A program made the translations under genes and the position numbers. This document shows positions 1,412 to 26,592 of a DNA stretch of 34,167 bases, piece after piece. The stretch lies in contig CAYMVB010000077.1 in NCBI GenBank assembly GCA_964393665.1, positions 1 through 34,167 of the forward strand. Reading direction: 5' to 3'. Below the pieces are notes generated by a model. It saw only the letters and a program-made list of their open reading frames with translations, ran no database searches and was not told the origin of the DNA. The number at the start of each line of letters is the position of its first letter. The first letter of the stretch is position 1. This DNA comes from an uncultured Desulfobacteraceae bacterium. Its GTDB lineage: Bacteria; Desulfobacterota; DSM-4660; Desulfatiglandales; B25-G16.

Positions 1412-1413
1412 AT

Positions 1414-3564: not shown

Positions 3565-3646
3565 AGGAATGATTTAAAAAAAATATCGAAACGTAGACAG
3601 TACGATTATTACCTGCGTATGTTTTATTCACTCGTGCTTATTTATT

Positions 3647-4267: not shown

Positions 4268-4383
4268 ATTTCAGGATACAGGAAGCGGAACTAATTTGAA
4301 CGATAGGCGAGAGTTTTATAAGTATGATAACCAGTTGTGCTGCCATTTTTAATAATAAATAAGAAAAGATTGGTTAAAAAAAT

Positions 4384-5888: not shown

Positions 5889-5910
5889 AACGCAAGAAAG
5901 GCTATGTGAT

Positions 5911-9515: not shown

Positions 9516-10610
9516 CTAATCTTGGGCCATCTTCCTTACCCTGTTATCAAGGTATTCAGAAAGATTGGCAGAATTTTCAGGCGACCACCCAAAGGATTGC
9601 TTCCATACGTCATCACTTTCCATACAAAGATACATGCCTAAATCATTGTGCCATTTGTTTAATCGTTCTGATAGCTTAGAATACATTTCGATTCTAATAG
9701 GTTTAAAATATCTCATTTTACCATCAAGTCCTGGCACAAACTCTCCATTAAATATGTTTGTATTGGGAAACCTTGACTTAATATCCCATTTAAGTTGAGG
9801 CATATACCTAAAAGAACCCATACTAATCCATATAATGGACTCAGGGTTTATGTATTTTTCAAGCAATCTGACTACGCCGTAATATTCATCCTCCCACCCA
9901 TCATATTGTATGAGCGGGTCGAAATGAAATGCAAGCAAAAAACCAGCCTCCTGGCATTTTTTCGCCGCTAATATTCTGCTCTTTAGGTTGGCAGTCATTA
10001 ATTCCTCTTTTTCTACTATTTTTTGTGTGTTTAATGACCATGCCATTACAATCCTTTTCCTATAATCACCTTTAATAATATTGCTTATACAGGTGGTCTT
10101 TGTTTTTAACTCCAAAATAGTATTCTGTCTTGAAGAGAAAAATGGAAGGAGAAAATCAGACCACCCTGTAATGTGGTCAAGGGCTAGGCTGTCTGTAAAC
10201 TCACCGGTTCCTATTCTAAAAATTTTCTCAGGTTTGCTATCGATATATTCACCTATAACGCCCAGTTGCTCTTTTATATTAGTGAAAATTCTCAATGATG
10301 GCTGATTAACATAAGATTGTAGGAAACAATAACTGCAGTCCATTGGGCAATTCACGCCGACATGTAAAATTTTGTAGCCGCAGCATATATACCGTTTTGT
10401 GCCCGGGCAAGGCTTCAAAAATTCACCATTAAAATGAGTAAGCCTGAGGGATTTCTTGTCCATGAAATCTTGGCAGTCTATTAAGGCAAGGTCATCGGGT
10501 TCAACCCTAGTAATTTTTACACCCGGAAGTCTTTGCGTTATCTTTTTTGTAAGAACGTCAGATTCTGCATTTCCTTCAGCTAAAATTCTCGTAATGTTAA
10601 ATCTTCTCAC
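9516..10610 (-). CDS. Spore photoproduct lyase (SplB)-like radical SAM protein
   Basis: CPMDCSYCFLQ (CxxxCxxC), DSLALDHIT, LELKTK, WSLN, RILAAKK..EAGF.LAFHFDP, DGWEDEY resemble SplB. GTG start at 10610 has GGGGAG upstream and overlaps the upstream stop (GTGA). Confidence 0.82.
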   Translation of the reverse strand: MRRFNITRILAEGNAESDVLTKKITQRLPGVKITRVEPDDLALIDCQDFMDKKSLRLTHFNGEFLKPCPGTKRYICCGYKILHVGVNCPMDCSYCFLQSYVNQPSLRIFTNIKEQLGVIGEYIDSKPEKIFRIGTGEFTDSLALDHITGWSDFLLPFFSSRQNTILELKTKTTCISNIIKGDYRKRIVMAWSLNTQKIVEKEELMTANLKSRILAAKKCQEAGFLLAFHFDPLIQYDGWEDEYYGVVRLLEKYINPESIIWISMGSFRYMPQLKWDIKSRFPNTNIFNGEFVPGLDGKMRYFKPIRIEMYSKLSERLNKWHNDLGMYLCMESDDVWKQSFGWSPENSANLSEYLDNRVRKMAQD

Positions 10611-11596
10611 GTATCTCCCCTGCCCTTCCAAAAATTAGGTACCTCTGATAACTCTGCTAATTTATGTAATTTGTTGATCTTGTCAGTAAGCTCCTCACCA
10701 CGTGAAAAATCTATTTCAAGCCGGTAATTGACACCTTCGAAGAAAGGCGGAGAGATTACGTTGACTCCCGATGGTAGAGAAAGTCGATCAAGGCCGTTTT
10801 TAAAGGCCATGTGTGCCTCTGAGAGCAATGGGAAACGTCTATTTTTTAATACCGCTGTTATTGCCTTTACTTTTTGTGGTTTATTCATATTGGTATCTGC
10901 TACTATTTCTTGTACATCGCTGCTGTTAATTATATCTGTTATTACTTGCCCTTCCCTTCTGGAAATTTCTTCTAAATATTGAAAGAGTTGTACCTGTTGA
11001 TTAATACTGAACTTCAAGGAATTGAAAAGGCTACTTATGCCTAAACGGCTTTCCCTATCAATATTTGCCATAAGGCCTGCAACCTTTAGTGATACTGCGT
11101 TTCTTGCAACCGAAACCTTAACTATTTCCTCTAACATATTTAAATTAAGATATAATAGCAGGCTATGCCTGTTCGCAGGTATCGTAAGTAGCGGCAAATA
11201 TTTTTCTATAATTTCTTCCTTCTTTAAAAAATTAACCAGCCTATCCAGTATCATAGCCTTTTCAATGCTATTGAATTCGCGATGCAGGAGGTTATCGTCC
11301 AGGTTAAACAACAGGGCATCGTGCTCGGTAAAACTATCTGGTAACACGTTGCATTCCGCACCCTTCCATCCAAGCTCATGTGCTGCCAGCAATCTTTTAT
11401 AGCCTGTTACTACAGAGTATGAGTTGTCCAGATTTTTTATAAGATACGGGGGGTTTATAATGCCATATTTTGAAATAGATTTTTTAAGTATCTCAAGGTC
11501 AAAGTCAAAGCTCATACAAAATGGGCCATCAGGCAGCAAATTGACCTCCGGGATGTTTATTCTTACATTATGAGCCTTTATTGGTCTTGTTTCCAT
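10607..11596 (-). CDS. ParB/Srx N-terminal-domain protein with extended helical C-terminus
   Basis: LKKSISKYGIINPP and YSVVTGYKRLLAA (GxxRxxA), DNLLHREFNSIEKA. ATG 11596 preferred (GAAGGT upstream); the ORF extends to 11611. Confidence 0.78.
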   Translation of the reverse strand: METRPIKAHNVRINIPEVNLLPDGPFCMSFDFDLEILKKSISKYGIINPPYLIKNLDNSYSVVTGYKRLLAAHELGWKGAECNVLPDSFTEHDALLFNLDDNLLHREFNSIEKAMILDRLVNFLKKEEIIEKYLPLLTIPANRHSLLLYLNLNMLEEIVKVSVARNAVSLKVAGLMANIDRESRLGISSLFNSLKFSINQQVQLFQYLEEISRREGQVITDIINSSDVQEIVADTNMNKPQKVKAITAVLKNRRFPLLSEAHMAFKNGLDRLSLPSGVNVISPPFFEGVNYRLEIDFSRGEELTDKINKLHKLAELSEVPNFWKGRGDT

Positions 11597-11620
11597 AAAA
11601 ATTACCTTCAAAATAGTGAA

Positions 11621-11932: not shown

Positions 11933-13912
11933 TCATGCAGCTACCCTCATTTCATCGTGTTTTACGATACTTTTTTCATATATAAAGACAAAACAACCAA
12001 GGATTATTCCTATACCTATTTTTATTGGGTCATTCGTAAAACAAAGTAATGCTCCTGCAACCAGTATGATTCTCATGCCTGCACCGAGACTTTTTACTAA
12101 ATAGCCCATAGTTCCTGCTGCAATCATATAGACGCCCACTGTTGCAGTGGTAACGGAAAAGATAATGTTTGGCACTGATCCCAATAATAAAAGTGACGTG
12201 TTAAAAATGAACATAAAGGGCAGGATATATTTTACAATAGCAAGCCTTACAGATATCCATGCAGTTTCCAGCCAATCTGCCTCCGCTATGCCTGCGGCTA
12301 CAAACACCCCAGGGCAGACCGGTGGTGTAAGGACTGATAGGATCGCAAAGTAAAGCACAAACATATGGGTCGCAACAGGGTTAAACCCCATTTGTATAAG
12401 GGATGGCGCAACAACAGCCGCACTCAATAGATATGCCGCAGGAGTAGGAACCCCCATTCCCAGCATAAGTGCCACGATGGCCGCAAGACCTAAAGCAAGA
12501 AATGTGTTGCTGCCGCTAAGGCCAATTATAATTTCAGAGATATTCACTCCAATGCCTGTTAGGGTAATAAGGGAGACAATTATATTAGCACAGACCAAAA
12601 GTGGGACGATTTTTATAAGTGACCTGCCGACATTATCCATGCCTTTTATAAGGTTTAATGCCCTTTTTCTTATCTCAGATAAGCTAAAGGTCGAAAATAC
12701 ATGGAGTATTGAAAGAACTGCAATTGCCCAGAAAGCTGATGTTTCCGGTGTATATCCCTTCACCATCAATGCAATAAGAAGTATGACAGGTATTACTAAT
12801 GGTATAGAGCGGGATGGCCGTAATATTTCAGCCAGGCGCTTGATATAACCGTCTGGGACTCTTTCAAGATTGCGCCTGGCACTTTCAAAGTGTATGGCAA
12901 AAAAGACGGATGTAAAAAATAAATAGGCTGGGATCAACGCACATATTGCAACTTGAATGTATGATATTTCAAGAAGCTCTGCCATTAAAAAGGCTGCGGA
13001 ACCCATTATAGGAGGAGTTATCTGCCCACCCGCAGATGCTGTGGCTTCAACTCCTGCCGAGAATTCATTTCCATATTTTAATTTTTTCATGAGAGGGATT
13101 GTAAAATTTCCCGTTGTGGCAGTATTTGCTACGGCGGACCCTGAAAGCATTCCAAAGAATGCACTAACTACTACTGAAACCTTTGCGGCGCCCCCAAAAA
13201 ACTTTCCCGTAAAACGCAGCGCTAAATCCATAAATGTGTTACCAGCACCAGTGGAAAGTAAAAATCCTCCAAATATAATAAATATAGCAACAATAGTAGA
13301 AGATACCCCTGTTACAAATCCCCAAAGTCCCTGGTCACTTAAATACATAACCTGGATGATATGTTTCATGCTAAAGCCTCTGTGACCCCAGTAAGAAAAA
13401 TAATCACCTATTACTGGTATGTCCGGAATGTATTGGCCAAAGAGTGCATAAAAGAGAAAGAGCAGGGTTAACACGGGAAAGATTATTCCTATTGTTCTTC
13501 GCCCTGCCTCCAATGCAAGAATAAACGCTGCTGTTCCCAGAAATAACTGTAAATTTGTTGATTCAGCAGGATGCTCCATTATCCAGTCATAATTAAAAAG
13601 AATATAGCCACATGATACAATAGCCGTTATAATTAAAAGAATGTCTATACCAAGGAGCACAGAGGGCCACAGGCCTTTGCCCTTTTTTTTCATAAACCCC
13701 ATCAGGGAAAATGTAAGAATCAAGGCAAAACCTACATGTACTGCTCTTTGCTTTAAGTTCGGCAATGGACCGGCAAAGCCAGTGTAAATATGAAACATGA
13801 CAAACAGTATAGCTACTGCACTAAGGATAATTCTCCATGTTCCATTAAGATTGTGCTGGTCTGATTTTGTGCTATGTTCTGCTACTTCACTTTGGTTAGT
13901 TTCAAGGGACAT
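11933..13912 (-). CDS. TRAP transporter fused 4TM/12TM permease (TAXI type)
   Basis: Highly hydrophobic; GGAAKVSVV.S, SGSAVAN, EATASAGGQITPPIMGSAAFLMAE, LGMGVPTPAAY, HMFVLYF, TPPVC. Confidence 0.92.
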   Translation of the reverse strand: MSLETNQSEVAEHSTKSDQHNLNGTWRIILSAVAILFVMFHIYTGFAGPLPNLKQRAVHVGFALILTFSLMGFMKKKGKGLWPSVLLGIDILLIITAIVSCGYILFNYDWIMEHPAESTNLQLFLGTAAFILALEAGRRTIGIIFPVLTLLFLFYALFGQYIPDIPVIGDYFSYWGHRGFSMKHIIQVMYLSDQGLWGFVTGVSSTIVAIFIIFGGFLLSTGAGNTFMDLALRFTGKFFGGAAKVSVVVSAFFGMLSGSAVANTATTGNFTIPLMKKLKYGNEFSAGVEATASAGGQITPPIMGSAAFLMAELLEISYIQVAICALIPAYLFFTSVFFAIHFESARRNLERVPDGYIKRLAEILRPSRSIPLVIPVILLIALMVKGYTPETSAFWAIAVLSILHVFSTFSLSEIRKRALNLIKGMDNVGRSLIKIVPLLVCANIIVSLITLTGIGVNISEIIIGLSGSNTFLALGLAAIVALMLGMGVPTPAAYLLSAAVVAPSLIQMGFNPVATHMFVLYFAILSVLTPPVCPGVFVAAGIAEADWLETAWISVRLAIVKYILPFMFIFNTSLLLLGSVPNIIFSVTTATVGVYMIAAGTMGYLVKSLGAGMRIILVAGALLCFTNDPIKIGIGIILGCFVFIYEKSIVKHDEMRVAA

Positions 13913-13967
13913 GTTTTTAACTCAAAGTTCCTTCTAAGATAAATGGTAACGGTTTTTGATCTTTAAT

Positions 13968-14027
13968 GAAAAAACACAGTAAAGACTTAGCTAACAAATT
14001 TAAGGGGCAGCCCTTACTGTGTTTTTC
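13968..14027 (-). terminator. Intergenic stem-loop after the TAXI binding-protein gene (partial terminator or mRNA stabiliser)
   Basis: 13-bp perfect arms AAAAACACAGTAA / TTACTGTGTTTTT. Confidence 0.55.
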
Positions 14028-14035
14028 AGGTATTG

Positions 14036-15034
14036 TTATCTCGCCTCCGGAGGTATTGCTACTGCAGGTATATTTTTTGCTCCAAGTTCAGAATATGCCC
14101 TGAGCGCACCTTTATGAAGGGGGATAAGTGTCAGATCTGCAGGATCCTGAACGAGATCAAGCTCTTTGAATGCCGGCCATGCAGATATCTGGAATTCCTT
14201 GCCTTTTATGATTGCATGAACTAACTTATAGGCAAGGTCATCGTTTAGTCCCTTATCACACATCACTCCTATAGGCCTCCCCCACATTGTATATGCCGGC
14301 TGATTGGGCATAGCCTTTATCCCACCTTCCGGAACAGTAATAAATGAAATGTAGGGGATTTCAGCTAAAATTTTCTCAGTGTGCTCTTTTGTTAGCGGGA
14401 TAAGTCGCAACTTCGTAAGTGTCATTATATCTAACGTTGATGAGTCAATCTGGGTTCCTATCCCTGTTTTTACATAACCTACGATTCTGTTGTCTTTTAT
14501 TGCCTTAACAGCATCGGATACTGCACCGATATGATAATCAGGTTTTACTCCCAGAATATTAAATATCTGTTTTGTCGTAGCCTCTGAAGCGGAGCCTCTA
14601 ATTCCAGGATTGAATTTTTTACCGTTAAGGTCTTCAAGTTTTTTAACGCCACTATCTTCTCTGACCACAATAAAATCTATGCCCACTGCATAGAGCCACA
14701 GTAATCTTAAATCCGGTAAAGGATTATCCTTCCACCTTGACAAACCCTGCCATGCTTCATACATAATTTTCATAGAGCAAATGCCCATATCGATTTCCTT
14801 GGCTTTAACCCTCGTGAGGTTGTCCACGCTTGCTCCTGTCTCAACAACATTTACCTTTACATCTGGTGTATATTTATTTATCGCTTTTGCGGCGCCAACA
14901 ACATATGCGTAGTGACTTGACGCTGCTGAACTTGCCCCAAAAAATAAATATGCCTTTTTCGCCTCAGACGTCACTGGTAATGTTAGAATTAACAATGCGA
15001 TAAAGACAAAAAAGAATCCTCTATATTTTTTCAT
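14036..15034 (-). CDS. TAXI family TRAP solute-binding protein
   Basis: Signal peptide (..SEA|K), ETGASVDN, DLRLL, DLNGKK, GSASE, IPLHKGALRAY; AGGAGG upstream. Confidence 0.92.
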   Translation of the reverse strand: MKKYRGFFFVFIALLILTLPVTSEAKKAYLFFGASSAASSHYAYVVGAAKAINKYTPDVKVNVVETGASVDNLTRVKAKEIDMGICSMKIMYEAWQGLSRWKDNPLPDLRLLWLYAVGIDFIVVREDSGVKKLEDLNGKKFNPGIRGSASEATTKQIFNILGVKPDYHIGAVSDAVKAIKDNRIVGYVKTGIGTQIDSSTLDIMTLTKLRLIPLTKEHTEKILAEIPYISFITVPEGGIKAMPNQPAYTMWGRPIGVMCDKGLNDDLAYKLVHAIIKGKEFQISAWPAFKELDLVQDPADLTLIPLHKGALRAYSELGAKNIPAVAIPPEAR

Positions 15035-15109
15035 GTATCTTCCTCCTTAAAGTAACAAGGTTTTAAATCACAGTTCTGCAATACAAGCTATGATAGGTAA
15101 GTACGAAAT

Positions 15110-15469
15110 TTACCGTAATGATTCTTTTACCTCTATTTGCAGTTTATTTGGTTTCGTTTTTTTCCAGGTATTTACGTTAAATGTATAATTTTCCCCTGCA
15201 GGAACCAAATTTGGCTGGCCTTTTTTTCCTGATGCGGTAAATTGTGGCACTTGATCATCGGCCTGAACAGCCAAATAAAAGGGCTTATCTTTGCCGGATA
15301 TATTTTTTATAGTTACATATACATAATAATTTCCCTTTTCATCTGCTTTACACTCAACTTTCTCTATCTTAGCGCTATCCACACTTTTTTTCTTGATGCC
15401 AGTTGAAAAAGCACTACAGGATACCAGTAAAAAAATCAGTATCAAAGGAAACGCACGCAATCTTTTCAT
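15110..15469 (-). CDS. Hypothetical lipoprotein, probably a beta-sandwich
   Basis: MKRLR, hydrophobic core and LVSC lipobox; VTIKN.S and VPAGE..TF patterns; AAGGAG upstream. Confidence 0.7.
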   Translation of the reverse strand: MKRLRAFPLILIFLLVSCSAFSTGIKKKSVDSAKIEKVECKADEKGNYYVYVTIKNISGKDKPFYLAVQADDQVPQFTASGKKGQPNLVPAGENYTFNVNTWKKTKPNKLQIEVKESLR

Positions 15470-15525
15470 ATTTTTCTCCTTGATTTAAGTTAATTGAATT
15501 TAAATCGACCTATGTAATTATCGTA

Positions 15526-16737
15526 TTACCAGATTATTAATTGACGAGGAAATTTATTCAGGATTTCAAAGCCTTCCTCATTAACAAGCACCATATCACC
15601 AATAACTCCTGCTGCCTCATTTGGAATAAAAAGATTAGGGTGAAGCTCAAAAAGCATTCCGTTTTGAATTTTAATGGGCGATTTGTTTTGTTCTTGTTTC
15701 TCGATATCTATATTTTTTAACAAATACGGGTTTGGAAAGGCATCTGAGAGAATTGGATCATTATAGTCAAGACCCAGGCTATGACCTGTTTTTAGCCAAT
15801 ACCAATCAAGGTCTCTTACATCAGGATAATATTTTCTTAATACATTGTCAGATGCCCTCCAAACTTCATTAAGGTCTAATCCAGGCTTCATGCAGTTCAA
15901 TGCCGCTTCTTCCATCTCCAGAACAATAGTAAACACCCGTAATTGGTCTTTATTAGGGCCCCCAATAGTGCCTGTCCTTATCGTGTGCCCCCAATGCCCT
16001 TCGTACATAATAAAAAGTGCTATGAGCACTTGATCGCCCTTTTGCGGCACCCTGTTGCATTCCCTTCTTGCATATCGTGGCCTATCTGCAACTGGCCTGA
16101 TGCTCAAAAAGGTTGAGGCGTGTTCACAGCCCTCATATTTTGCAGTGTGTTCCAGGTCAGCCTGAAGCTGGTAAACCTTTTTACCCTTCCCTATCTCCCT
16201 CGTAAGAGTCTCAAGCATTGCGTCACAGATTTCAGCCGCACGCTGGTGAAAAATAATCTGAATGGTATCTTTAATAATTCTCTGTTCATCTATAATTTTG
16301 CTTGCTTCAATTAATTCTATACCCTCTGCATCCTCTCGCAACCTATCATAGACAGGTGCTGGTGTCTCATCGCGGCCGATATAACCGATTTTTTTATTTT
16401 TTGAAAAAAGAGAATGAACACCTGTTATTATTTCCTGGCCTAATTTTGCCTGTGGGGTAACTCGGATATCGTCAAACCATAGTGTTTCCTTGGCATACAG
16501 TTGAGCAGATCGCATGGTAACTAATAGTATAGGGTCTTTTTCCGGTACCACGATCAGTACAGACGGTAAATTTCTTCCATCCCACCCACAAAGATAGCGT
16601 ATGTATCCATGAGTACGGCTGCCATTACCCAGCATGCTTCCTGTAGAATATATAACAAGGCCTTGAAGATTACGGCTCTGCATTTTTTCAGCGGTATTCT
16701 TCAAGCGTTCCTTAAATATTGAATTTGGTATTTTCAA
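15526..16737 (-). CDS. M24/creatinase-fold protein with non-canonical metal ligands (TTG start)
   Basis: Creatinase N-domain (ERL....KM...L.GL, YIRYLCG), R.IK, pita-bread motifs GDQVLIAL...GHWGHTIRT, KPG, GHSLGLD, GMLFELHP, IGDMVLV..EG.E.L. Confidence 0.8.
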   Translation of the reverse strand: MKIPNSIFKERLKNTAEKMQSRNLQGLVIYSTGSMLGNGSRTHGYIRYLCGWDGRNLPSVLIVVPEKDPILLVTMRSAQLYAKETLWFDDIRVTPQAKLGQEIITGVHSLFSKNKKIGYIGRDETPAPVYDRLREDAEGIELIEASKIIDEQRIIKDTIQIIFHQRAAEICDAMLETLTREIGKGKKVYQLQADLEHTAKYEGCEHASTFLSIRPVADRPRYARRECNRVPQKGDQVLIALFIMYEGHWGHTIRTGTIGGPNKDQLRVFTIVLEMEEAALNCMKPGLDLNEVWRASDNVLRKYYPDVRDLDWYWLKTGHSLGLDYNDPILSDAFPNPYLLKNIDIEKQEQNKSPIKIQNGMLFELHPNLFIPNEAAGVIGDMVLVNEEGFEILNKFPRQLIIW

Positions 16738-16766
16738 AATAACATCCTTAGGTAAAGAACTAGCGG

Positions 16767-17141
16767 TTATTCTAAAAACGTTCGATCAGGGTTATCCGTG
16801 TCAAAGGCAGGGGCATATATAGAGAGGATAATGCAAGCAAATCTCAATGCATGGGGGGTTCCTTTTGGGACAAAAAAAACATCGCCTTTTTTGAGGATTT
16901 TCTTCTCATCTCCAATGACTACCTCGCCTTCGCCATCCAGCAATTGTATAATTTCATCGTGATCTTTATGAATATGTAATGGGATACCATGTACACTGTC
17001 CGCCATCTGTACCGCATTTAATGTACAGTGCTCACCATGGTGGAGAAATGTATAGTTAATATTGTGCTTTTCATCCCTCCCATCCTCTGCCTTGCGGGCC
17101 TTTTCTAAAACCTCTGAGGCTGACCAAAAATTATCTGCCAT
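16767..17141 (-). CDS. Cupin domain protein
   Basis: HIHKDHDEIIQLLDGEG and GDVFFVPKGTPH motifs; H, H, E, H ligands intact. Confidence 0.88.
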   Translation of the reverse strand: MADNFWSASEVLEKARKAEDGRDEKHNINYTFLHHGEHCTLNAVQMADSVHGIPLHIHKDHDEIIQLLDGEGEVVIGDEKKILKKGDVFFVPKGTPHALRFACIILSIYAPAFDTDNPDRTFLE

Positions 17142-17212
17142 ATCTAAAAATCATCTCCTTTCAATAACATATCGTAACTATTAAACGAGTATCTATTGCA
17201 CTAACCCCCAAT

Positions 17213-18538
17213 CTAATTAAGCATTAATTTAGGAAGCCATAAGGTTAATTGAGGGAATATATATAATAATATCAAAGTCGGTAATTCAATAAATAGATAA
17301 GGAACAACTCCTTTTATTATATCACCGTCTGTAACCTCCGGAGGGGCAACACCTTTTAGAAAAAATATATTATATGCAAATGGTGGCGTTATATATGACA
17401 TCTTTAAGACAACGCAAAAAAGCAACGCAAACCATACGGGCTCGGCACCTATTGTTTTAAGTATGGGAACAAATATAGGAACTATTACTAATAGTATGCC
17501 AATCCAATCCATAAACATACCTAAAACGAAAACCAGCATCAGCATAATCATGATTGAAACAAGCTTATTGCCTCCACTAATACCAAAGATAAATGCTTCT
17601 ATCACATCCGCGCCGCCTAAAGCCATAAACGATGTAGTAAAAAATCCGGCAAGCAACATGATCATAAATACCATGCCGCAGGTTTTTGCAAGGGTGAGAA
17701 GTGCCTTTTGCATGGTTTCAAAATTTAAATGGCCATAAAAGGCAGTCAGGATTACCGAGATAAAGGCTCCGACACCGGCTGCTTCAGTAGGGGAGGCAAT
17801 TCCTGCGAATATTGAACCGAGGACGCCCAGAATAAGGGCTACAGGAGGAAAAAGATCTCTAATTATTAAAAAAAGGATCGTGCCCTTTGCTACCTCTTTT
17901 CGAGTCTCAGGAGGTAATGGTGGGCCTAGCTTCGGATTGATTGCACATCTTATAGCGATATAGGTCAAATAGGATAACCCTAATATGAGGCCGGGTATTA
18001 CCGCTGCTATAAAAAGACGAGCAATTCCAATTCCTGAAGCAGGCCCGTACAAAATCAGCATTATGCTGGGCGGGATAATAACCCCTAAGCCACCTCCTCC
18101 TGCGATACATCCTGCAACCATGCTCTTATCATAATTGCGGGATAGCATTGCAGGCATGGCAACAAGGCCCATCATGACGACTGTTGTCCCTGCTATCCCG
18201 GTACAGGCATCGAAGATGATAATTGCTATCATAGTACCTAAAAGCAGTCCACCTTTTAAGCGGCCCATTAAAAGATGCATGGTGCTGTATAATCTTTCAG
18301 CTATTCCCGCCTGCTCTAACATGCATCCCATAAAGATAAAAAGTGTGATAGCCTCCATTTCGTAGCTTGTCATCATGGTCATTGTACGGGCGGGAAGCAT
18401 TGCAATGAGGTCCATACCCCACGCAATATATCCAAATATCAATGCTAAAATGCCTAAAACAAATGCAACATGAAAACCGGCTATTATGAGGCCTATAAGG
18501 CCTAAAAACATTATTACGGCAAGTTGTGTCTCTGTCAT
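17213..18538 (-). CDS. dctM: TRAP transporter large permease DctM
   Basis: LFIFMG..LEQAGIAERL, GGLGVIIPPS, LF.AA.IPG, GIASPTEAAGVGA, LGMFMDW, ITPPF. Confidence 0.92.
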   Translation of the reverse strand: MTETQLAVIMFLGLIGLIIAGFHVAFVLGILALIFGYIAWGMDLIAMLPARTMTMMTSYEMEAITLFIFMGCMLEQAGIAERLYSTMHLLMGRLKGGLLLGTMIAIIIFDACTGIAGTTVVMMGLVAMPAMLSRNYDKSMVAGCIAGGGGLGVIIPPSIMLILYGPASGIGIARLFIAAVIPGLILGLSYLTYIAIRCAINPKLGPPLPPETRKEVAKGTILFLIIRDLFPPVALILGVLGSIFAGIASPTEAAGVGAFISVILTAFYGHLNFETMQKALLTLAKTCGMVFMIMLLAGFFTTSFMALGGADVIEAFIFGISGGNKLVSIMIMLMLVFVLGMFMDWIGILLVIVPIFVPILKTIGAEPVWFALLFCVVLKMSYITPPFAYNIFFLKGVAPPEVTDGDIIKGVVPYLFIELPTLILLYIFPQLTLWLPKLMLN

Positions 18539-19038
18539 TATTCCTTCCCTTTTATGACCACTGATAGGCTGCGGATAAATTCTGCTATCCCCTGAAGACC
18601 TAACAGGCCAAAGGCTACCGGAATCATCGTTTTAATGGGATAAACAGGGGCTCCTACGGTTGTATGCCATGAGCATTCCTTTATTTCCCATGCGGTTTTA
18701 GCAAATGAAATGCCATAAAAAACCAAGAACCCGCATATAGTCAAGAGAAATAAGTAGGAAATAGAAGTAATTATTGCCTGCATCCTCGGAGGGTATAGCT
18801 TAAATAATGGGTCTACCCTGACATGTCCTTTTTCTACAAGTGTATAGGTAAATGCGAAAAGAAAAACCATGGAGTAGAACATCCAAGCCAGCTCAAAGGA
18901 CCAGTCATCTCCCCTGTGAAAAAAATATCGCTCTACAACTATGGCAACAGTAACGAGCATCTGAAAAACAACAAACCAGCTTGAAACGTTGCCTGATAAG
19001 CGACTAAGCGTGTCAATATATTTCAAAAAACGATTCAT
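18538..19038 (-). CDS. dctQ: TRAP transporter small permease DctQ
   Basis: Four TM segments, V.RY, W..EL, GHVRVD, PVYPIKT.IP; 1-nt overlap with dctM. Confidence 0.9.
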   Translation of the reverse strand: MNRFLKYIDTLSRLSGNVSSWFVVFQMLVTVAIVVERYFFHRGDDWSFELAWMFYSMVFLFAFTYTLVEKGHVRVDPLFKLYPPRMQAIITSISYLFLLTICGFLVFYGISFAKTAWEIKECSWHTTVGAPVYPIKTMIPVAFGLLGLQGIAEFIRSLSVVIKGKE

Positions 19039-19075
19039 TCCTCATACCTTTGTTTAAAGTAAACGTATCGCATGC

Positions 19076-19115
19076 CACTTCCCTTCTTTTCTTAGTTTAA
19101 AAAAGAAGGGAAGTG
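19076..19115 (-). terminator. Perfect 15-bp stem-loop between dctP and dctQ
   Basis: CACTTCCCTTCTTTT-10 nt-AAAAGAAGGGAAGTG, just after the dctP stop. Confidence 0.65.
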
Positions 19116-19121
19116 CATATT

Positions 19122-20189
19122 TTACCAAGGCTCTATGGCATATTCTTTATATTTGTCAAAAAAGACTTTTTGGTGATCAAGTATCTTTTTGGCCCAGGGA
19201 TCACCCGTGGCAATAATTCTATTTCTCGCTCTTTCTGTTGCTTTCTCAAATTCCGCCTGCATTTCCGGTGTTACCTTGATTACCTCCCATTTGTCCTGCC
19301 ATTTTTCGGCCATAACTTGATCCATATATCCACCATATTCAAAGGCATGCCACATGCTTGCATCTGCAGCATATTTAACTACCTTCTTAAGGTCATCCGG
19401 CAGTGCCTTCCATGAATCCATATTTATAAATATCTGGACGGTGGCCCCAACAGGCTGATGAATAGCTCCAACCAGCACGTATTTGGCGACATCCTCTATG
19501 CCTGATTTTGAATCTATGTAAAATGAGCTCATTTCGCAGGCATCCAATTCGCCTCTTGACATGGCCGGTGTCACATCGGTCATAGGTATAGAAACACACG
19601 TACATCCCAATTCTTCAAAGAAAACCTTATTTAAACCTGAGGTTCTAATCTTAAGCCCTTTAAAATCCTCAATTTTCCTAAGAGGCTTAATTGAATAAAC
19701 AGCCTCAGAGGCCGTGATGACAACTGGAAAACTTGTAAGATTGAATTTGCTTTGGAAATATTCATTATAGAGGTCTAAGCCTCCTCCCTCGTATAGGTAT
19801 CGTACTTGTGAAAAAATGCTCTCATTTGTCCATCCAGGCCTACTTCCAATGGAAAGCCCTGCGTACGGTAACGTGCCGGCAACATACATACCGCTATTAT
19901 GGGTCAAATCCAATCTTCCCGCTGATGTCTCAGTCATGGCCTCTATTGGCCCTACTATTTCTCCACAGGCAAACATCTTTGGGATTACGAGGCGGCCACC
20001 ACTCATTTTATTAAGTGCTTCAACAAAATATTCTGCCTCATCATGAAAAGCATCACCACGGTTCCACGCTGATTGTGCCCTCCATTTAATCACCTCATCC
20101 TTTGCTTGTGCTGGTCTTTCACAAACGATAATGAAAAAGGTAAAGGCAACTGCCACTAACATAAACAATGAAAACCATCTTTTTGTCAT
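19122..20189 (-). CDS. dctP: TRAP solute-binding protein DctP (TakP/FcbT1-like subfamily)
   Basis: Signal peptide (..AQA|K), IKWRAQSAW, MSGGRL, EDFKGLKIRTSG (conserved Arg), W.ALPDDLK. Start set at ATG 20189 with GGAGGA upstream. Confidence 0.9.
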   Translation of the reverse strand: MTKRWFSLFMLVAVAFTFFIIVCERPAQAKDEVIKWRAQSAWNRGDAFHDEAEYFVEALNKMSGGRLVIPKMFACGEIVGPIEAMTETSAGRLDLTHNSGMYVAGTLPYAGLSIGSRPGWTNESIFSQVRYLYEGGGLDLYNEYFQSKFNLTSFPVVITASEAVYSIKPLRKIEDFKGLKIRTSGLNKVFFEELGCTCVSIPMTDVTPAMSRGELDACEMSSFYIDSKSGIEDVAKYVLVGAIHQPVGATVQIFINMDSWKALPDDLKKVVKYAADASMWHAFEYGGYMDQVMAEKWQDKWEVIKVTPEMQAEFEKATERARNRIIATGDPWAKKILDHQKVFFDKYKEYAIEPW

Positions 20190-20293
20190 TTTTTCCTCCA
20201 TCTTTAAAAAATTATCACTCGATAGTTCTTTCCGATATACGTATTTTTTTAGAATGAATTCCTCCTTTCTCTTTAAGGTTAAACACATCCGTT

Positions 20294-20971
20294 TTAATTA
20301 CTTTGTCCCCTCTGGTTTCTATCTAAAATCTTTTTTTTTAGAAAATCAAAGGTGAAATTGATATGTTCTTTCATAAATTTTTTTGCTTTTGAATATTCGC
20401 CGTTCTTAATAAAGTCCAAAATTTGATTATGCTCCTCAATAGAGCGCCTGCCAGAAGTAGGGATATATAAATAAATGAATTGATACCTGGCCAAATGAGA
20501 AGAAATTGAATTATAAAAATGAATAACCCAGTTATTTCCAGTGGAATCAATAAGCTTTATATGAAAATCTACAAACGCCTCAAGGTAGCTGAATATCTCC
20601 TCGCTGTTATCCTGAGAAGGCGTGGACAGACGTGATGCTGCTTCCACTGAGGCAATGACACTGGGGAGAGTTTTTATGTTTTTCGCCTTTAATATATCAA
20701 TAGAATAGCACTCGAGCATTTCCCTTGTCTGATAAATATTTTCCAGGTCTTCTATTGAGATCGTGGTAACATTAGTCCCCTTTCTTGGACTATTTATAAC
20801 GAGATGCTCATTTTCCAAAATCCTCAAAGCCTCACGTATTGGAGGTCTGCTGATTTTAAGGCGGGCCGCTAAATCTGTTTCATTGATTCTCTGCCCAGCA
20901 GCTATCTCGCCTGTTATTATTTGTTTCCTTAGATATTCTGTTGCAATACTTGTTACGGTTTTAATTTCCAT
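20294..20971 (-). CDS. GntR family regulator with FCD domain
   Basis: LR..IITG...GQRINE.DLA.RL.ISRPPIREAL..L helix-turn-helix; RE.LE, FH, GN, EH in the FCD domain. Confidence 0.92.
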   Translation of the reverse strand: MEIKTVTSIATEYLRKQIITGEIAAGQRINETDLAARLKISRPPIREALRILENEHLVINSPRKGTNVTTISIEDLENIYQTREMLECYSIDILKAKNIKTLPSVIASVEAASRLSTPSQDNSEEIFSYLEAFVDFHIKLIDSTGNNWVIHFYNSISSHLARYQFIYLYIPTSGRRSIEEHNQILDFIKNGEYSKAKKFMKEHINFTFDFLKKKILDRNQRGQSN

Positions 20972-20983
20972 TATTGTTTTCCT

Positions 20984-21031
20984 GCCTACAGTCTACAGTC
21001 TACAATAGTTCAACACTATTACATTTGTCAA
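20984..21031 (-). promoter_or_regulatory. Sigma70 promoter of gntR overlapped by tandem 7-bp repeats (candidate GntR operator)
   Basis: Minus strand TTGACA-18 nt-TATTGT, overlapped and followed by TGTAGAC TGTAGAC TGTAGGC; AATAGT-N5-ACTATT palindrome at 21004-21020. Confidence 0.65.
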
Positions 21032-21155
21032 GAAAAAATTTGCTTGATTTTTTTATTGTACAAAAAAAAGTAGAAAGAGATTAGACGGGTGTATAAAAAA
21101 AGTATGTTTCATGAAGGGAGAATAAGAAGGAATAGGGTCAAGGTGTGGCTGTAAT

Positions 21156-21560
21156 CTATTTCTCTAAAACTTCTATAACGCCTGATGTGGCATCAACCTT
21201 GACGTAATCATCAGTTTTTATGACTGCAACTACATTAACGTCGGGGCGATCAACAGCAGGGATTTCTGTTGCTATTACTGCGCCGGATAGGACCGGTTCA
21301 CTTTCGAGACAAATTATGGCAGCGGGTGCCTTCCCGTTTTTCTTTGCATTCCAGGCAGCAAAATCGCAGCCACTGGAGCCTTTTCCAGTCGTAAATACAA
21401 AAATCTTATAAGCTAAATTTACCCCCTGCAATTTATGGCGAGGCATACAAATCTTACCTGTGACAGGGTCCAGATCTCCCAAAAAAGCGAAAGGACCATC
21501 GTATACAACAGCCCTCCCTTCTGCCTTGCCGGCACTTACCATATGTGCTTTTATTTCCAT
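21156..21560 (-). CDS. Aconitase X swivel (small) subunit, DUF126
   Basis: G.AEG.A.V, F.FLGDLDP.TG.I...H.L.G.NL..KI.VF..GKGSS, APAAII, IPAVD. ATG 21560 overlaps the end of the large-subunit gene. Confidence 0.88.
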   Translation of the reverse strand: MEIKAHMVSAGKAEGRAVVYDGPFAFLGDLDPVTGKICMPRHKLQGVNLAYKIFVFTTGKGSSGCDFAAWNAKKNGKAPAAIICLESEPVLSGAVIATEIPAVDRPDVNVVAVIKTDDYVKVDATSGVIEVLEK

Positions 21561-22810
21561 TTTGGTATTTCTCCGTTCCACGTTCCTGTTATGGCAGCAT
21601 GTATGCATTCTTCCTCAGTACCAAAAAATACCTTGACACCACAGACAGAGGCAATATAATGCGCACTTCGCGCAGAGTTTGTCGCAGCACTTTTTGCTTG
21701 CTTGTCCCCAGCAATATCCGCCCTGGTGAAAGGATTTGCAATAGAAGGACAGGCAGGGAGAAAGTGGCCTCCTGCCTTCTCAATAATAGTTGCCCAGCCC
21801 TGCTGCCTTGCGAGGGCTTCAACAGGTGCGGAGGCCCCTATCAACATGGATGTTCTTAAGGTTTTACCGTCAACAAGGGAGGCTATTCGTCCAATCTCAT
21901 CAATCGTTGCATGGGGACATCCAAAGGCGACGTGTTCTACGTTATCATCATCCCATACATTAAGCCTTTCCCATGTTTCTTGCATTTCTCGTTTTCCAAC
22001 CTTAATTACCTGCTGATTTTTTCTATTTCCCAGGGCTGCCTCGAGTGTAGGCGCTTCTGGTGTGGTACCCACGATATGCGCCAGCGTAACAGCGCCTGAG
22101 CTAGGCATTGATATGACTAATGCCCTGGCAAAATCAAATGGTATATTCGGTGGCAACCCTTTTACTGCAATAGGCTTGAAGCCTGGTACCTGATCGCCAA
22201 TATAGTAGCCAAGACAGTGATAATGCGCAATAGTCCAGTCTGATATGTCCAAATCCTCCACATCAACGATATAGTCTGCGTAACGGTTTTCAGGGATAAG
22301 CAGGCCCATTAATGGAGTTCGGCCGCATACTGCGGCAGCTAAAGATACAAGAATTCCCATTCTATCCACTCTTGCGCCAAACAGGCTATTGTTGGCTACC
22401 TGCATGCAGCTCCCACCCATAGGCACTATATCACCTTTTCTTGGGAATATACCAAGAAGATACTCGGCACAGGTCTCTGTGCGTAACCATCCCAGCTCAA
22501 GATACCGTTTTAGTTTTTCATTATGTTCCTTCTCCCAGGTACCCGCGAAACTCAAACCCCACTCTTTCCACTTCTCAGGGGAATAAGACGGATGAGTAGT
22601 AACCCTGTGCGGGGTGCTGGTTAGATCCTCTGTAAACATATCCCAGAAATCCTTCGGACAAAAGTCATAGCTGATGTGTGCATACGTAATCGGGCTTAAT
22701 CTCTCTGCATCAAAGGAATCTCCAAGTTTCACTATTAGTTCTATTGATCTCTGAACACCACTTCCATATTTCCCACCGAGCATCCGTTTTTCTTCATCCG
22801 TAAGAACCAT
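21551..22810 (-). CDS. Aconitase X catalytic (large) subunit, DUF521
   Basis: LTDEEKRML.G, AHIS, TCAEY, NSLFGAR, AAAVCGRTP, SGAV.L.HIVG.TPEA, GCPH, PAC, TNSAR.AHY. Confidence 0.88.
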   Translation of the reverse strand: MVLTDEEKRMLGGKYGSGVQRSIELIVKLGDSFDAERLSPITYAHISYDFCPKDFWDMFTEDLTSTPHRVTTHPSYSPEKWKEWGLSFAGTWEKEHNEKLKRYLELGWLRTETCAEYLLGIFPRKGDIVPMGGSCMQVANNSLFGARVDRMGILVSLAAAVCGRTPLMGLLIPENRYADYIVDVEDLDISDWTIAHYHCLGYYIGDQVPGFKPIAVKGLPPNIPFDFARALVISMPSSGAVTLAHIVGTTPEAPTLEAALGNRKNQQVIKVGKREMQETWERLNVWDDDNVEHVAFGCPHATIDEIGRIASLVDGKTLRTSMLIGASAPVEALARQQGWATIIEKAGGHFLPACPSIANPFTRADIAGDKQAKSAATNSARSAHYIASVCGVKVFFGTEEECIHAAITGTWNGEIPKWK

Positions 22811-23423: not shown

Positions 23424-24386
23424 TTATCCAAATGTTACCTTTGTGCCGACACTATTCAGTGCAAAGGATGAAGGGAATTCCTCTGAGAATCTTTTGATAG
23501 CATTCCAGCCAGTGCAGTGCATTGGAGTGATAAGTTGAGGGTCCATTTTCTTAAACTCCCTGATTGTTTCCTCAATTATAGGCTCAAATATAGGTCCTGA
23601 TAAATGGAAGCCTCCTAATACACCGTAAACCTTCTCAACGCCGGTTACCTTCTTTGCATACATGATGGTGTTAACAATGCCTGCATGAGCACAACCTGAT
23701 ACAACCACAAGACCTTTTCCCTTAACATGTACGGCAATTGCCTGGTCATCTAATATGGGATCAAACAGGCTTTTACCATCCTTTTCATAGGTTGCGTTTG
23801 GCAGTCCTTTTTCAAAACTTGTTACTCTCTCTACCTCCCCTGTTATCAGTATCATGTCTTCTGCCAGCAAATACGGCAATTTATTCTCAATGATATTGAT
23901 CCCTGCAGCAAGCATTTCTTCTTTTTTTAGGGTTTGGGGAAATTTAATCTTCCTCCCGTCATCAAGGCCAAAGAATCGCGGTGAAACAAAGGCATCCGGG
24001 TGAACTATTAAGGGGATTTGTCTTCCTACAGCGGCCATTACGGGATACAGTGAACCAGTATGGTCCATGTGTCCATGGCTAAGAACAATGGCCTCTATAT
24101 CTTTTGGATTTATACCTAAAAGATCCATATTATGAGGAACGCCGATATTTGTGTATCCACAATCGAAAAGAATTGTGTGAGATGCATCACCCTTTTTTAC
24201 GGTAAGCAAGAGGGATAGGCCATGTTCCGCTAAAAGTGCATCAGCAGGAATATCGCCGCCTATAGCTAAAGGTGGTCTTCTGACACCGGGTGAATTTCTA
24301 AGAAGAACATCCACATAATTATCCATCAGTGTGGTTACCTCGAGGGTATCCACCTCTTTCATTGTATCTTTCATTGTATTGATCAT
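23424..24386 (-). CDS. MBL-fold metallo-hydrolase (COG1237 type)
   Basis: [43 protein letters not shown]. Confidence 0.88.
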
Positions 24387-25536: not shown

Positions 25537-26592
25537 TCAAGCGATAGACTTAGTCATTACAGATGATAAACTGGATAAAAGTTCTAAAATTTTTTTTGCT
25601 ATTTTCGGTTCTAATGTTCCTACCCCACAAGCAGGTGTAAGGATAGAGCGCTCAGATATGGTTTTTTTAGTGACCCCCCAATGGTGAATTACGTTAATCC
25701 CTTTTTCCAATCTCTCTTTAAGGTCAGCAACTGTTTCTTTCCCTGTGTATGATGTTGTAGGAACTATGCCCCACGCGATCGTGCCGCCCTTTTCTATAAA
25801 TTCTATTATGGATTTCTTGTAAAGGAGAAAATAGTCCATGTAATCAAAGGCATCAAAATTTACTATATCAATTCCCGTTTCAATTATCATAGACCAATCA
25901 GTGTTTCCGCAGCAATGGATGCCTATCAATGTGTCAGTGCGTGATCTTAAATAATCTATGATTTCTCTTATATATGTAATAACATCCTGTCTCTGTATGG
26001 GCGTAAAAGCCGAGCCAAAGCCGGAAAGGTATGGTTCATCAATAAAAAGAATGGTTTGCCTATTTGCATGAGACATCTTTTTTACAGCCCATAAACCTTT
26101 TATAGCAAGTCCCTTTATTATGATATCCATAATTTCATTGTTATAAAGCGCGGTTTTACCTGCTTTATCTATAAGACTCCCTGCGAAGGTAATAGGCCCA
26201 GCTATTTGACCCTTTATAAAGACACCTTGGTTATCCTGATTAGTATCAATTACGTCTAAAAGCTTAAATATACCTGCTGCGTATTCCGGACTAAAGGCAA
26301 AGTAATCTGTATCCTCAGACATAAAATGTTCATAAAAGGAGGTAAGCTCGCTATGATTATCATCGAAGTGGTTAATATAAAGTGATCTTTTCTCGGTGTT
26401 AACTTTTATGAGCGGCAAACCCTCACTTACCTGTACAGCCATATCTTCAAATAGATTTCTTTTAACAAATTGCGGCCAGAATGGAAATTTTGGAAAATTT
26501 TTAAGGATATCCCTGCATGACCCTTCTACGTCTAAGAATGGAACACTGCCAACACCGGTAGCAAGAAAGTTGAAGGAGATATTTTTTTTCAA
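25537..26592 (-). CDS. Single-domain 'core' methionine synthase (MetE C-terminal/URO-D fold, MesB-like); TTG start overlapping the efp stop
   Basis: TGVGSVP, WPQ, KGQIAGPIT, DEPYL, GIHCCGNTDW (HxC), FDAF, AWGIVPT, TPACG.G; 351 aa with no N-terminal folate-binding half. Confidence 0.72.
   Translation of the reverse strand: MKKNISFNFLATGVGSVPFLDVEGSCRDILKNFPKFPFWPQFVKRNLFEDMAVQVSEGLPLIKVNTEKRSLYINHFDDNHSELTSFYEHFMSEDTDYFAFSPEYAAGIFKLLDVIDTNQDNQGVFIKGQIAGPITFAGSLIDKAGKTALYNNEIMDIIIKGLAIKGLWAVKKMSHANRQTILFIDEPYLSGFGSAFTPIQRQDVITYIREIIDYLRSRTDTLIGIHCCGNTDWSMIIETGIDIVNFDAFDYMDYFLLYKKSIIEFIEKGGTIAWGIVPTTSYTGKETVADLKERLEKGINVIHHWGVTKKTISERSILTPACGVGTLEPKIAKKILELLSSLSSVMTKSIA

Follow-up and report, generated by a model that had tools for sequence, protein, structure and literature searches.

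A candidate GntR-controlled uptake-and-catabolism locus with an unusual aconitase X and a rewired M24-fold enzyme in an uncultured Desulfobacteraceae bacterium

Eleven adjacent genes on one contig of an uncultured Desulfobacteraceae bacterium (GCA_964393665.1, contig CAYMVB010000077.1; all 34,167 nucleotides of the contig are called the window below) encode a split aconitase X (AcnX), a GntR regulator, a DctPQM-type TRAP importer, a small cupin, an M24/creatinase-fold enzyme, a lipoprotein and a second, TAXI-type TRAP importer. The explanation we prefer, to which we give an even chance of being right, is that this locus is a substrate-inducible, modular block for uptake and catabolism under one GntR protein, formed as a lineage-specific fusion of modules that recur elsewhere. 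Three such modules recur: the unusual AcnX; the regulator with one importer; and the rewired M24 enzyme with the second importer. The imported compound is probably a nitrogen-containing organic acid.

A preliminary description of the region had listed eleven co-oriented genes between unrelated neighbours, and its account of the gene content stands. Eleven open reading frames (ORFs) fill positions 11933-22810, all on the minus strand, and ORF calls, Pfam and NCBIfam agree with the families that had been assigned: AcnX-L and AcnX-S, GntR with an FCD domain, DctP, DctQ, DctM, cupin, M24 with Creatinase_N, a TAXI solute-binding protein (SBP) and a fused permease. The genes are contiguous, with short gaps, and the flanking genes are indeed generic, none of them belonging to the families of the cluster. 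The shared orientation is real as well, but it is uninformative: all genes from 8501 to 29328, thus beyond the cluster, lie on the minus strand, and co-orientation by itself is therefore no evidence for a cluster. The window is contig C77 of genome G000, a sulfate-reducer-like genome from sediment, which comprises 2.53 Mb in 380 contigs and is 92.6% complete (C, G and L numbers below denote contigs of this genome, genomes and loci, respectively).

A shared regulator and recurrent gene modules

The best evidence that the modules share one metabolic theme is that a single GntR lineage and a single repeat are found across module types. The GntR protein joins a winged-helix domain (PF00392) to a C-terminal FCD domain (PF07729), which places it in the FadR/FCD subfamily. 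In a tree of 29 sequences (27 distinct), 21 Desulfobacterota GntRs form one clade (support 84/74). The GntR of the window groups with those of L132 and L013, both of which are M24-TAXI loci (99/95), and this group is sister (90/90) to the GntRs of loci in which AcnX is found with DctPQM (100/99). The GntR of L155 branches off next, and outside it are those of loci that combine M24-TAXI with methyltransferase genes.

The preliminary description had placed acnX upstream of a gntR promoter, and a promoter-like site is indeed found there, TTGACA-18-TATTGT, with 10 of 12 consensus matches in a promoter scan. It comes with an operator-like repeat, TGTAGAC-TGTAGAC-TGTAGG, directly after the -10 box. 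A tandem of TGTAGAC heptads (2 to 3.5 copies) is likewise present upstream of gntR in L011, L130, L131, L203, L013, L155, L163, L165, L167, L171, L172, L174 and L182. The tandem is unique in the 2.53-Mb genome when zero or one mismatch is allowed over 14 nt, and among 2.26 Mb of fetched sequence it occurs in 15 loci: 13 copies are upstream of an orthologous gntR, one is the window's own, and the last precedes, by 319 nt, a GlcD-like gene next to AcnX in L149. L132 has a single TGTAGAC heptad only, and the outer GntR clade, from the M24-TAXI-methyltransferase loci, has TGTGCACA-type palindromes instead of the tandem. It would appear, from these sequence patterns, that one GntR lineage with one apparent DNA specificity heads dctPQM (with or without acnX), M24-TAXI or, as here, both.

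The regulator resembles FadR/FCD GntR repressors of acid catabolic operons in its domains, in its position at the head of an operon, and in having a candidate operator that overlaps the promoter. It differs in that the candidate operator is a direct tandem heptad and not the short palindrome that is usual in the family. A TTGTACAA-type palindrome upstream of gntR was considered as an operator and rejected, as it has 18 matches in the window where about 31 are expected by chance and is not conserved in relatives. The scan found no terminator-like site between acnX-S and gntR, and read-through is therefore possible. A second FCD-type GntR, 39% identical to that of the window, is encoded on C246 (L212, positions 1-6031), where a TTGTCGACAA palindrome follows a TTGACA box. 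Downstream of it are genes for a GlcD-like FAD oxidase, a CCG Fe-S protein, an S-adenosylmethionine (SAM) methyltransferase and DUF1847, and then the first part of a PrpD-family gene. Four of these recur just upstream of M24-TAXI in L014 and L016, namely PrpD and, at 51-71% identity, the genes for the FAD oxidase, the CCG protein and the methyltransferase.

The neighbourhoods of AcnX relatives were compared in 75 metagenome loci (74-96% identity), 61 of which are informative in that they hold at least two other genes. acnX-S follows acnX-L in 73 of the 75 loci, the contigs of the other two ending first. Among the 61 informative loci, DctPQM of some kind is the most frequent neighbour (17), followed by an orthologous gntR (12), an ABC system with SBP_bac_5 (11), a GlcD-like FAD oxidase and/or CCG Fe-S protein (9), a galactarate-dehydratase-like gene (8) and a second AcnX pair (7). 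Less frequent are a metallo-beta-lactamase (MBL)-fold gene (6), 2-oxoacid:ferredoxin oxidoreductase (5), a PF04115 (ureidoglycolate-lyase-like) gene (5) and class I fumarase subunits (4). Close homologues of the window's genes do co-occur elsewhere, as had been anticipated, and they do so as modules: acnX with gntR, dctPQM and a small cupin-type gene on the one hand, and gntR with M24, lipoprotein and TAXI genes on the other.

The first of these modules has remained together through rearrangement. Three gene orders keep acnX next to dctPQM (63-77% identical), gntR (50-56%) and the PF04115 gene: acnXLS-gntR-dctPQM-PF04115 in L172 and L174, the same gntR-dctPQM-PF04115 block inverted relative to acnX in L165 and L167, and gntR-dctPQM-PF04115-acnXLS in L182. 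In L155 the order is repeat-gntR-acnXL-acnXS, so that acnX lies downstream of the gntR promoter. L132, with an AcnX 86% identical to that of the window, brings genes of both modules together: acnXLS, an 89-aa ORF and a Fic gene are followed by gntR, M24, lipoprotein, TAXI SBP and permease, and then by ParB_N-like and spore-photoproduct-lyase (SPL)-like genes, the same as those downstream of the cluster in the window. This locus is without dctPQM or cupin. The complete set of eleven genes is present only in the near-identical relatives L011 and L130 (86-97% protein identity), with fragments in L131 and L203.

Two further features of the AcnX loci were seen. The MBL-fold gene of the window (23424-24386, minus strand) belongs to one family that is found near acnX in L157, L160, L162, L202, L179 and L130 (the six loci counted above), either upstream of acnX and co-oriented with it or downstream in convergent orientation, and it may belong to the AcnX module. 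Two to three AcnX L/S pairs share a contig in L141, L144, L149, L150, L159, L164, L166 and L188, often with galactarate-dehydratase-like and GlcD/CCG genes, which suggests a family of related hydroxy-acid dehydratases.

The M24 family is rare, with 77 loci in 185,579 species genomes, and comprises 145 protein clusters at E<=1e-10. Close orthologues occur in three of 40 relatives (G003, 89%; G021, 81%; G002, 83%, partial), the next best match being 28% identical. Only L011 (89% M24, same genus) among the 77 loci has the full set with acnX-L/S, cupin and close dctPQM. Of the 14 loci with an M24 of 50% identity or more, all but L017, thus 13, have the unit of M24, lipoprotein, TAXI SBP and TAXI permease, together with gntR; the lipoprotein is missing from four of the 13 (L020, L031, L032 and L052). 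In seven of them, gntR immediately precedes M24 (L013, L016, L018, L020, L021, L031 and L032). More generally, 64 of the 77 loci have a TRAP or tripartite tricarboxylate transporter (TTT) carboxylate transporter gene within 7 kb, and these neighbour counts are lower bounds, ORF calling in high-GC loci being crude.

The 64 more distant M24 loci (proteobacterial, 30-44% identity) have DctPQM or TctABC transporters, and their further partners are genes for amidase (23 of 64), DUF2848 (14), D-glutamate-cyclase-like (9), GLUCM_C (5) and hydantoinase A/B (5) proteins, which are mostly C-N hydrolases, and for LysR regulators (15). Because a carboxylate importer and C-N hydrolases are found beside M24 relatives, we read the M24 protein as a likely non-peptide C-N hydrolase. 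A set of LysR, M24, DctPQM, DUF2848, amidase and D-glutamate-cyclase-like genes recurs in L058-L087 and others (Xanthobacter, Bosea, Variovorax etc.), and some of these loci instead carry TctABC and hydantoinase A/B. A full-text literature search found no paper on DUF2848.

Altered enzymes and their importers

The PF04412 match takes up residues 1-403 of 419 in AcnX-L, and the swivel domain is encoded separately next door, which is the split arrangement of type II. Its best solved relative is the archaeal TkAcnX (7cnr chain A, 155 bits), whereas the bacterial cis-3-hydroxy-L-proline (C3LHyp) dehydratase 7cnp scores 117 bits (AcnX fold matches, 117-122); AcnX-S aligns to residues 4-131 of 7cnr chain B with 88 bits. 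Residue roles are those given in PMC8184944, and a numbering offset of 10 for 7cnp was deduced from the tagged chain. On this basis, the Fe-S ligands C110, C283 and C342 of TkAcnX correspond to C114, C298 and C354 (the last aligned with a one-residue shift), all three of which are invariant in 13 of 13 subfamily members (61-100% identity). AcnX-S retains the GKGS serine motif and the catalytic Ser of the swivel domain, and Y385 of AcnX-L corresponds to Y365 of TkAcnX and to Tyr534 of the C3LHyp dehydratase.

These likenesses to the mevalonate-5-phosphate dehydratase TkAcnX (type IIb, 7cnr/7cns) and to the C3LHyp dehydratase do not extend to the residues that, in the same source, define either function. 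The C3LHyp contacts are all replaced in alignments to 7cnp (W35 by L, C71 by S, T72 by G, D203 by S and I206 by F), and Cys stands for Ser449. The phosphate-binding residues of TkAcnX are lost as well: G48-V49-S50 falls in a gap, N53 is F and N79 is Y. The glutamate common to both solved enzymes (E292/E129) is Gly133, which adjoins an invariant Cys135, and the lysine K530/K361 is Arg381. The NCBIfam model for C3LHyp dehydratase (NF051439) scores 189.3 against a cut-off of 700, far short of equivalog level. Proline racemase/epimerase and pyrroline-2-carboxylate (Pyr2C) reductase, the usual context of hydroxyproline degradation, UbiD/UbiX and mevalonate genes were all absent among the window ORFs scanned with Pfam, in keeping with what had been claimed for the usual AcnX partners, and the host, in contrast to that of TkAcnX, is bacterial.

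Because the contacts of both solved functions are lost and the equivalog score is far under its cut-off, the pair is best regarded, on sequence grounds, as an uncharacterised split AcnX, and the earlier view of a divergent protein with neither characterised function holds up against the landmark residues given in PMC8184944. Only two functions have been assigned in the AcnX family, and that structure paper, of 2021, describes bacterial types IIc-IIf that are without the landmark residues of either. The subclass is common in sediment metagenomes: 601 protein clusters match at E<=1e-20, identity over the top 120 is 61-100%, and at least 120 clusters are at 61-93%. A search of 400 further genomes from the phylum gave 42% identity at most.

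For the M24 protein, a pita-bread fold with a Creatinase_N domain is indicated by Pfam, by an AlphaFold2 (AF2) model (pLDDT 90.1, pTM 0.90) and by Foldseek, in which the model matches prolidases, DoeA and creatinase at about 20% identity and TM 0.73-0.79 (E=1e-26 to prolidases). The family profile was aligned to the P. furiosus prolidase 1pv9, with the numbering verified by counting along the alignment. At the positions D209, D220, H284, E313 and E327 of 1pv9, which we take to be its binuclear metal ligands, the M24 protein has A240, H251, H319, H366 and G380, so that only one of five canonical ligands (H284 = H319) is kept. Position 240 is A, G or S across the family, and all 18 sequences compared (40-100% identity) share H248, H251, H319, E364, H366 and D381. 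In M24 enzymes, one metal is bound by the His, the second Asp and the first Glu, with the second Glu as a bridging ligand, and the other metal is served by the first Asp. From this ligand mapping and these metal roles, what remains in the family would be the first site alone, converted to three histidines (H251/H319/H366), the second having been lost.

The term 'rewired M24', under which the protein had been introduced, is borne out: four of five metal ligands are lost, and NCBIfam scores are far under cut-off for PepQ (79 against 630) and for DoeA (TIGR02993, 34.5 against 613; NF038259, 34.6 against 575). A Protein Atlas search with the protein gave generic M24 names only. Like prolidase/aminopeptidase P (M24B, 1pv9), which provides the top sequence and fold matches, it has a Creatinase_N domain and the pita-bread fold, but the sole ligand kept and the low identity set it apart. 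The non-peptidase M24 enzymes creatinase and DoeA/EutD share the two-domain fold, and both are C-N hydrolases of small zwitterionic carboxylates; their similarity to the family profile is weak (1chm, E=1.6e-10; DoeA, E=2e-7), and the His-rich site presumably differs from the ligand replacements of creatinase. Ectoine is imported by TRAP systems. A reading of the locus as an ectoine pathway was rejected: DctP matches the ectoine-binding 2vpn/3gyy with only 32 bits, the DoeA models are far under cut-off as above, and the cupin has no ectoine-synthase Pfam match at E<=0.01. Ectoine could thus serve as a chemical analogy only. Dimethylsulfoniopropionate and creatine were considered as well, from family analogies: an M24 lyase and cupin lyases act on the former, and a creatininase-family gene lies near M24 in L016.

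The first importer is a DctPQM TRAP system with P, Q and M encoded together. In NCBIfam, DctP falls short of the cut-off (46.8 against 50), whereas it passes that of Pfam, and its closest solved relatives are the lactate-binding TTHA0766 (2zzv, 102 bits), 2hzk/2hzl and the ketoacid-binding 7ug8; its orthologues (71-77% identity) adjoin AcnX in L165, L167, L171, L172, L174 and L182. The second importer is of the TAXI-TRAP type, as it has a TAXI SBP and a fused DctQM permease, the SBP being closest to 8s4j, 9ibo, 9oz4 and 1us4 (78-88 bits). Both systems are complete in the same way as known TRAP and TAXI systems, but at only about 80-102 bits to any solved binding protein their ligands cannot be read from sequence, and in contrast to known TAXI systems a conserved lipoprotein gene is inserted before the TAXI SBP gene.

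This lipoprotein is 63-79% identical across seven other loci, and its gene, whenever present, lies between M24 and the TAXI SBP. Where both proteins are encoded (nine loci), its conservation exceeds that of M24 in seven (L014: 69% versus 59%). The stretch TASGKKGQP does not vary, and no Pfam family matches the protein above threshold. An AF2 model (pLDDT 81.6) has an Ig-like beta-sandwich, for which Foldseek gave weak matches only, to Cj0090 and DUF1425 lipoproteins (TM about 0.5). The cupin belongs to a tiny family of 36 protein clusters at E<=1e-8, with a homologue (38% identity) in one other genome of 400 in the phylum. A 65% identical homologue is directly after acnX-S in L145, and another (55%) is in L159. 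Homology of the cupin to the PF04115 protein, which takes the same place after dctM, was considered and rejected, since no alignment is obtained at E<=100.

Proposed function and competing explanations

As a mechanism for the modular block, we propose that the tandem TGTAGAC heptads, which directly follow the -10 box of the gntR promoter, are probably bound by GntR itself, and that gntR-dctPQM-cupin-M24-lipoprotein-TAXI would stay repressed as long as no small-molecule effector occupies the FCD domain. The two ATP-independent importers would take up carboxylates, with DctP belonging to the lactate/2-oxo-acid-binding branch and the TAXI protein being nearest to amino-acid-binding TAXI proteins. 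The M24 protein is most likely a mononuclear metal hydrolase (or lyase) that acts on a non-peptide C-N bond of the TAXI substrate, the bond being of amidine, guanidine, ureide or lactam type. The AcnX pair would be an Fe-S dehydratase, sensitive to oxygen, that eliminates water between C2 and C3 of a 3-hydroxy-carboxylate, possibly on the same carbon skeleton as the M24 step, and the small cupin would work alongside AcnX as an isomerase, tautomerase or lyase. For these elements to hold jointly, namely derepression of GntR at TGTAGAC, two TRAP imports, C-N cleavage at a mononuclear His site of M24, and 2,3-dehydration by AcnX with an accessory cupin, the case is in our judgement evenly balanced. 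Hydroxyectoine-like, creatine-like and glutamate-lactam-like substrates may be named as chemical analogies only.

Several observations weigh against this proposal. M24/TAXI genes neighbour AcnX in only two of the 61 informative AcnX loci (L130 and L132). Of five genomes with M24-TAXI, three (G432, G433 and G434, completeness unreported) are without an AcnX-L match at E<=1e-10, the AcnX genes of G431 are only 31-33% identical, and the AcnX orthologue of G430 (69%) lies about 1 Mb from its M24 locus and adjoins an IS200-like transposase gene. (Shared flanking synteny with G430 was considered and rejected, as the MBL-fold gene beside its AcnX is not orthologous to that of the window, with 25% identity over 52 aa.) Upstream of acnX in the window there is no full TGTAGAC tandem, only a single TGTAGAT, and support in the GntR tree is moderate at the deeper nodes (83-90).

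Furthermore, M24-TAXI is found beside MtaA-like (URO-D family) genes in six Desulfobacterota loci (L014, L016, L020, L021, L031 and L032), with a corrinoid-protein gene in four and DUF6951 in three of them. L014 and L016 additionally have PrpD, a SAM methyltransferase and a GlcD/CCG pair, and L016 also has the creatininase-family gene. These neighbours hint at a methylated substrate or product in the six loci. A tblastn search of G000 gave no MtaA-like (URO-D) homologue, an absence that is not established in a genome 92.6% complete. With the same limit, a pathway with corrinoid methyltransferases in G000 was rejected, as tblastn gave neither a URO-D-type methyltransferase nor a homologue of DUF6951, creatininase, PF04115 or the galactarate-dehydratase-like protein; on C202, it gave a B12-binding homologue with 40-41% identity.

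Expression is hinted at weakly. Seven DNA sequencing runs hold at least half of the sampled words, and four metatranscriptome runs from one study hold 24-47%. Contigs from these RNA libraries match dctP, dctQ/dctM, M24 and the TAXI SBP with 0-1 differences, and one spans the dctP-dctQ spacer. Those matching AcnX have 15-36 differences from the window, and one continues into the upstream DnaJ-like gene. None covers gntR or the spacer between acnX-S and gntR, which says nothing either way. The contigs show neither strand nor a single transcript, and DNA contamination is possible, so that they too temper the proposal.

One competing explanation is chance juxtaposition: acnX-L/S would be a separate resident pair, dctPQM-cupin would have been inserted into an older gntR-M24-TAXI operon, and the substrates would be unrelated. 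The genomes with M24-TAXI and no AcnX fit this view, as do the distant AcnX orthologue of G430 beside its transposase gene, the lack of an operator repeat before acnX in the window, and L132, where dctPQM-cupin is missing and the Fic gene separates acnX-S from gntR. So do the more divergent RNA-library contigs for AcnX, which are possibly another strain's. We nevertheless regard chance as unlikely, if worth serious consideration, because acnX, the orthologous gntR and the 63-77% identical dctPQM have stayed adjacent through at least three rearrangements, because acnX comes directly after gntR in L155, and because the GntRs of both module types fall in one clade with one repeat, which is hard to reconcile with unrelated effectors.

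At the other extreme, the eleven genes could form one linear pathway, much as the preliminary description had it: a single organic acid or cyclic imino acid would be imported, M24 would open its ring or hydrolyse it, and isomerisation by the cupin and dehydration by AcnX would follow. Contiguity with short gaps, the overlap of acnX-L and acnX-S, the retention of the whole set in L011 and L130, the company of acnX, gntR, M24 and TAXI in L132, and the GntR clade and repeat common to AcnX-type and M24-type loci all speak for such a pathway. As a conserved pathway unit, however, the eleven genes failed the comparison, given that the full set is confined to near-identical relatives and that AcnX and M24 are so seldom neighbours; three of the five M24-TAXI genomes are without an AcnX match. 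In addition, the cupin is very rare, with the unrelated PF04115 protein after dctM in its stead in loci of the L165, L172 and L182 types, and the presence of two unlike importers points to two substrates or to separate points of entry. We consider the linear pathway doubtful to the point of being rather unlikely.

Standard functions, that is, C3LHyp dehydratase and prolidase, are suggested by the best NCBIfam names (C3LHyp dehydratase and PepQ), by an amidohydrolase-type Xaa-Pro-dipeptidase-like gene near the M24 of L013 (310 bits against a cut-off of 500) and by M20 dipeptidase-like genes in L031 and L032, but with both scores far under cut-off (189 vs 700 and 79 vs 630), the C3LHyp contacts given in PMC8184944 replaced, four of five M24 metal ligands lost, and no proline racemase/epimerase or Pyr2C reductase among the scanned window ORFs, they are already largely refuted and barely credible.

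A bolder form of the modular-block proposal can also be considered, although we think it improbable. The M24 protein would found a pita-bread family with a mononuclear three-His site that cleaves a non-peptide C-N bond of a small heterocyclic, guanidino or ureido carboxylate imported by TAXI, and the linked AcnX subclass would carry out a third AcnX function in the same catabolic network. That function would be the dehydration of a 3-hydroxy acid or of a 3-hydroxy cyclic imino or amidino acid, and a hydroxylated ectoine-like or creatine-like compound could be the solute, by chemical analogy. If so, M24 and AcnX together would make up an anaerobic route, as yet undescribed, by which Desulfobacterota of sediments use a nitrogen-containing solute that is abundant.

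Literature searches on aconitase X, on TAXI/TRAP/M24, on AcnX/TRAP/GntR and on ectoine and sulfate-reducing topics found no paper on the cluster, the M24 variant or the AcnX subclass. A regulator that can be tested, a candidate operator and a binding protein accompany the AcnX subclass, so that ligand screening could give access to a third AcnX function. The M24 family, if the proposed site is real, would add a new kind of catalysis to a textbook fold, and one GntR clade and one repeat with different cargo in each genome make a clean example of modular operon assembly. For the turnover of carbon and nitrogen in anoxic sediments, the route would be of importance if its substrate were an abundant solute.

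Gene coordinates, flanking genes and minor observations

The features of the locus are collected in Table 1. For acnX-S, the start at 21560 and not that at 21608 is most likely the true one, because the alignment to the solved small subunit begins there; from this start, the gene overlaps acnX-L by 10 nt. For dctP, 20189 or 20201 is most likely the start and not 20288, because of the position of the signal peptide and the spacing in L130.

Table 1. Features of the AcnX-GntR-TRAP-M24 locus, in window coordinates
Feature	Coordinates	Strand	Basis and remarks
acnX-L, catalytic (large) subunit of a type-II, split AcnX; predicted to be an Fe-S dehydratase	21551..22810	-	PF04412 294 bits, full length
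acnX-S, small swivel subunit	21156..21560	-	PF01989 76.8 bits; longest ORF reaches 21608
gntR promoter-like site TTGACA-18-TATTGT (21031..21002) and tandem TGTAGAC repeat (20984-21004), candidate GntR operator	20984..21031	-	promoter scan, sequence reading
gntR, GntR regulator with FCD effector domain	20294..20971	-	PF00392 56.4, PF07729 63.5 bits
dctP, TRAP solute-binding protein	19122..20201	-	PF03480 98.3 bits; start 20201 or 20189; longest ORF reaches 20288
dctQ, TRAP small membrane subunit	18538..19038	-	PF04290 80.4 bits
dctM, TRAP large permease	17213..18538	-	PF06808 245 bits; TIGR00786 278 vs cut-off 268
small single-domain cupin, 124 aa, His/His/Glu...His motifs	16767..17141	-	Cupin_2 51.5 bits
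M24/creatinase-fold enzyme, TTG start	15526..16737	-	Peptidase_M24 PF00557 96.2, Creatinase_N PF01321 43.2 bits
small lipoprotein, 119 aa	15110..15469	-	signal peptide and VSC lipobox
TAXI-family TRAP SBP	14036..15034	-	PF16868 (NMT1_3) 168.8 bits; TIGR02122 151 vs cut-off 84
TAXI-type fused DctQ-DctM permease	11933..13912	-	DctM Pfam 295 bits; TIGR02123 555 vs cut-off 320

The flanking genes encode DnaJ/DUF1232, MBL-fold, radical SAM, elongation factor P (EF-P), ExbBD, ParB_N-like, SPL-like and 3-hydroxyacyl-CoA dehydrogenase proteins, and the nearest named relatives are metagenome-assembled genomes titled Deltaproteobacteria, Desulfobacteraceae and Desulfatiglandales. A Firmicute origin, to which the low GC content and the SPL-like gene had pointed, was rejected in view of these relatives. 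The ParB_N-like gene and the SPL-like radical SAM gene form a pair downstream of the TAXI permease (9516-11611, minus strand), as they do in L132 (13607-15237). A 351-aa ORF at 25537-26592 (minus strand) has no Pfam match, its sole match being a weak one to a MetE-like methionine synthase model (45.9 bits against a cut-off of 258).

Elsewhere in the genome, a repeat of about 100 bp that contains a tandem TGAAGAC heptad with a conserved flank is found on at least 10 contigs (C18, C85, C125, C129, C137, C260, C268, C325, C343 and C365). Several copies lie within a few hundred bases of a contig end, and the element may be the end of a mobile element or a dispersed repeat.

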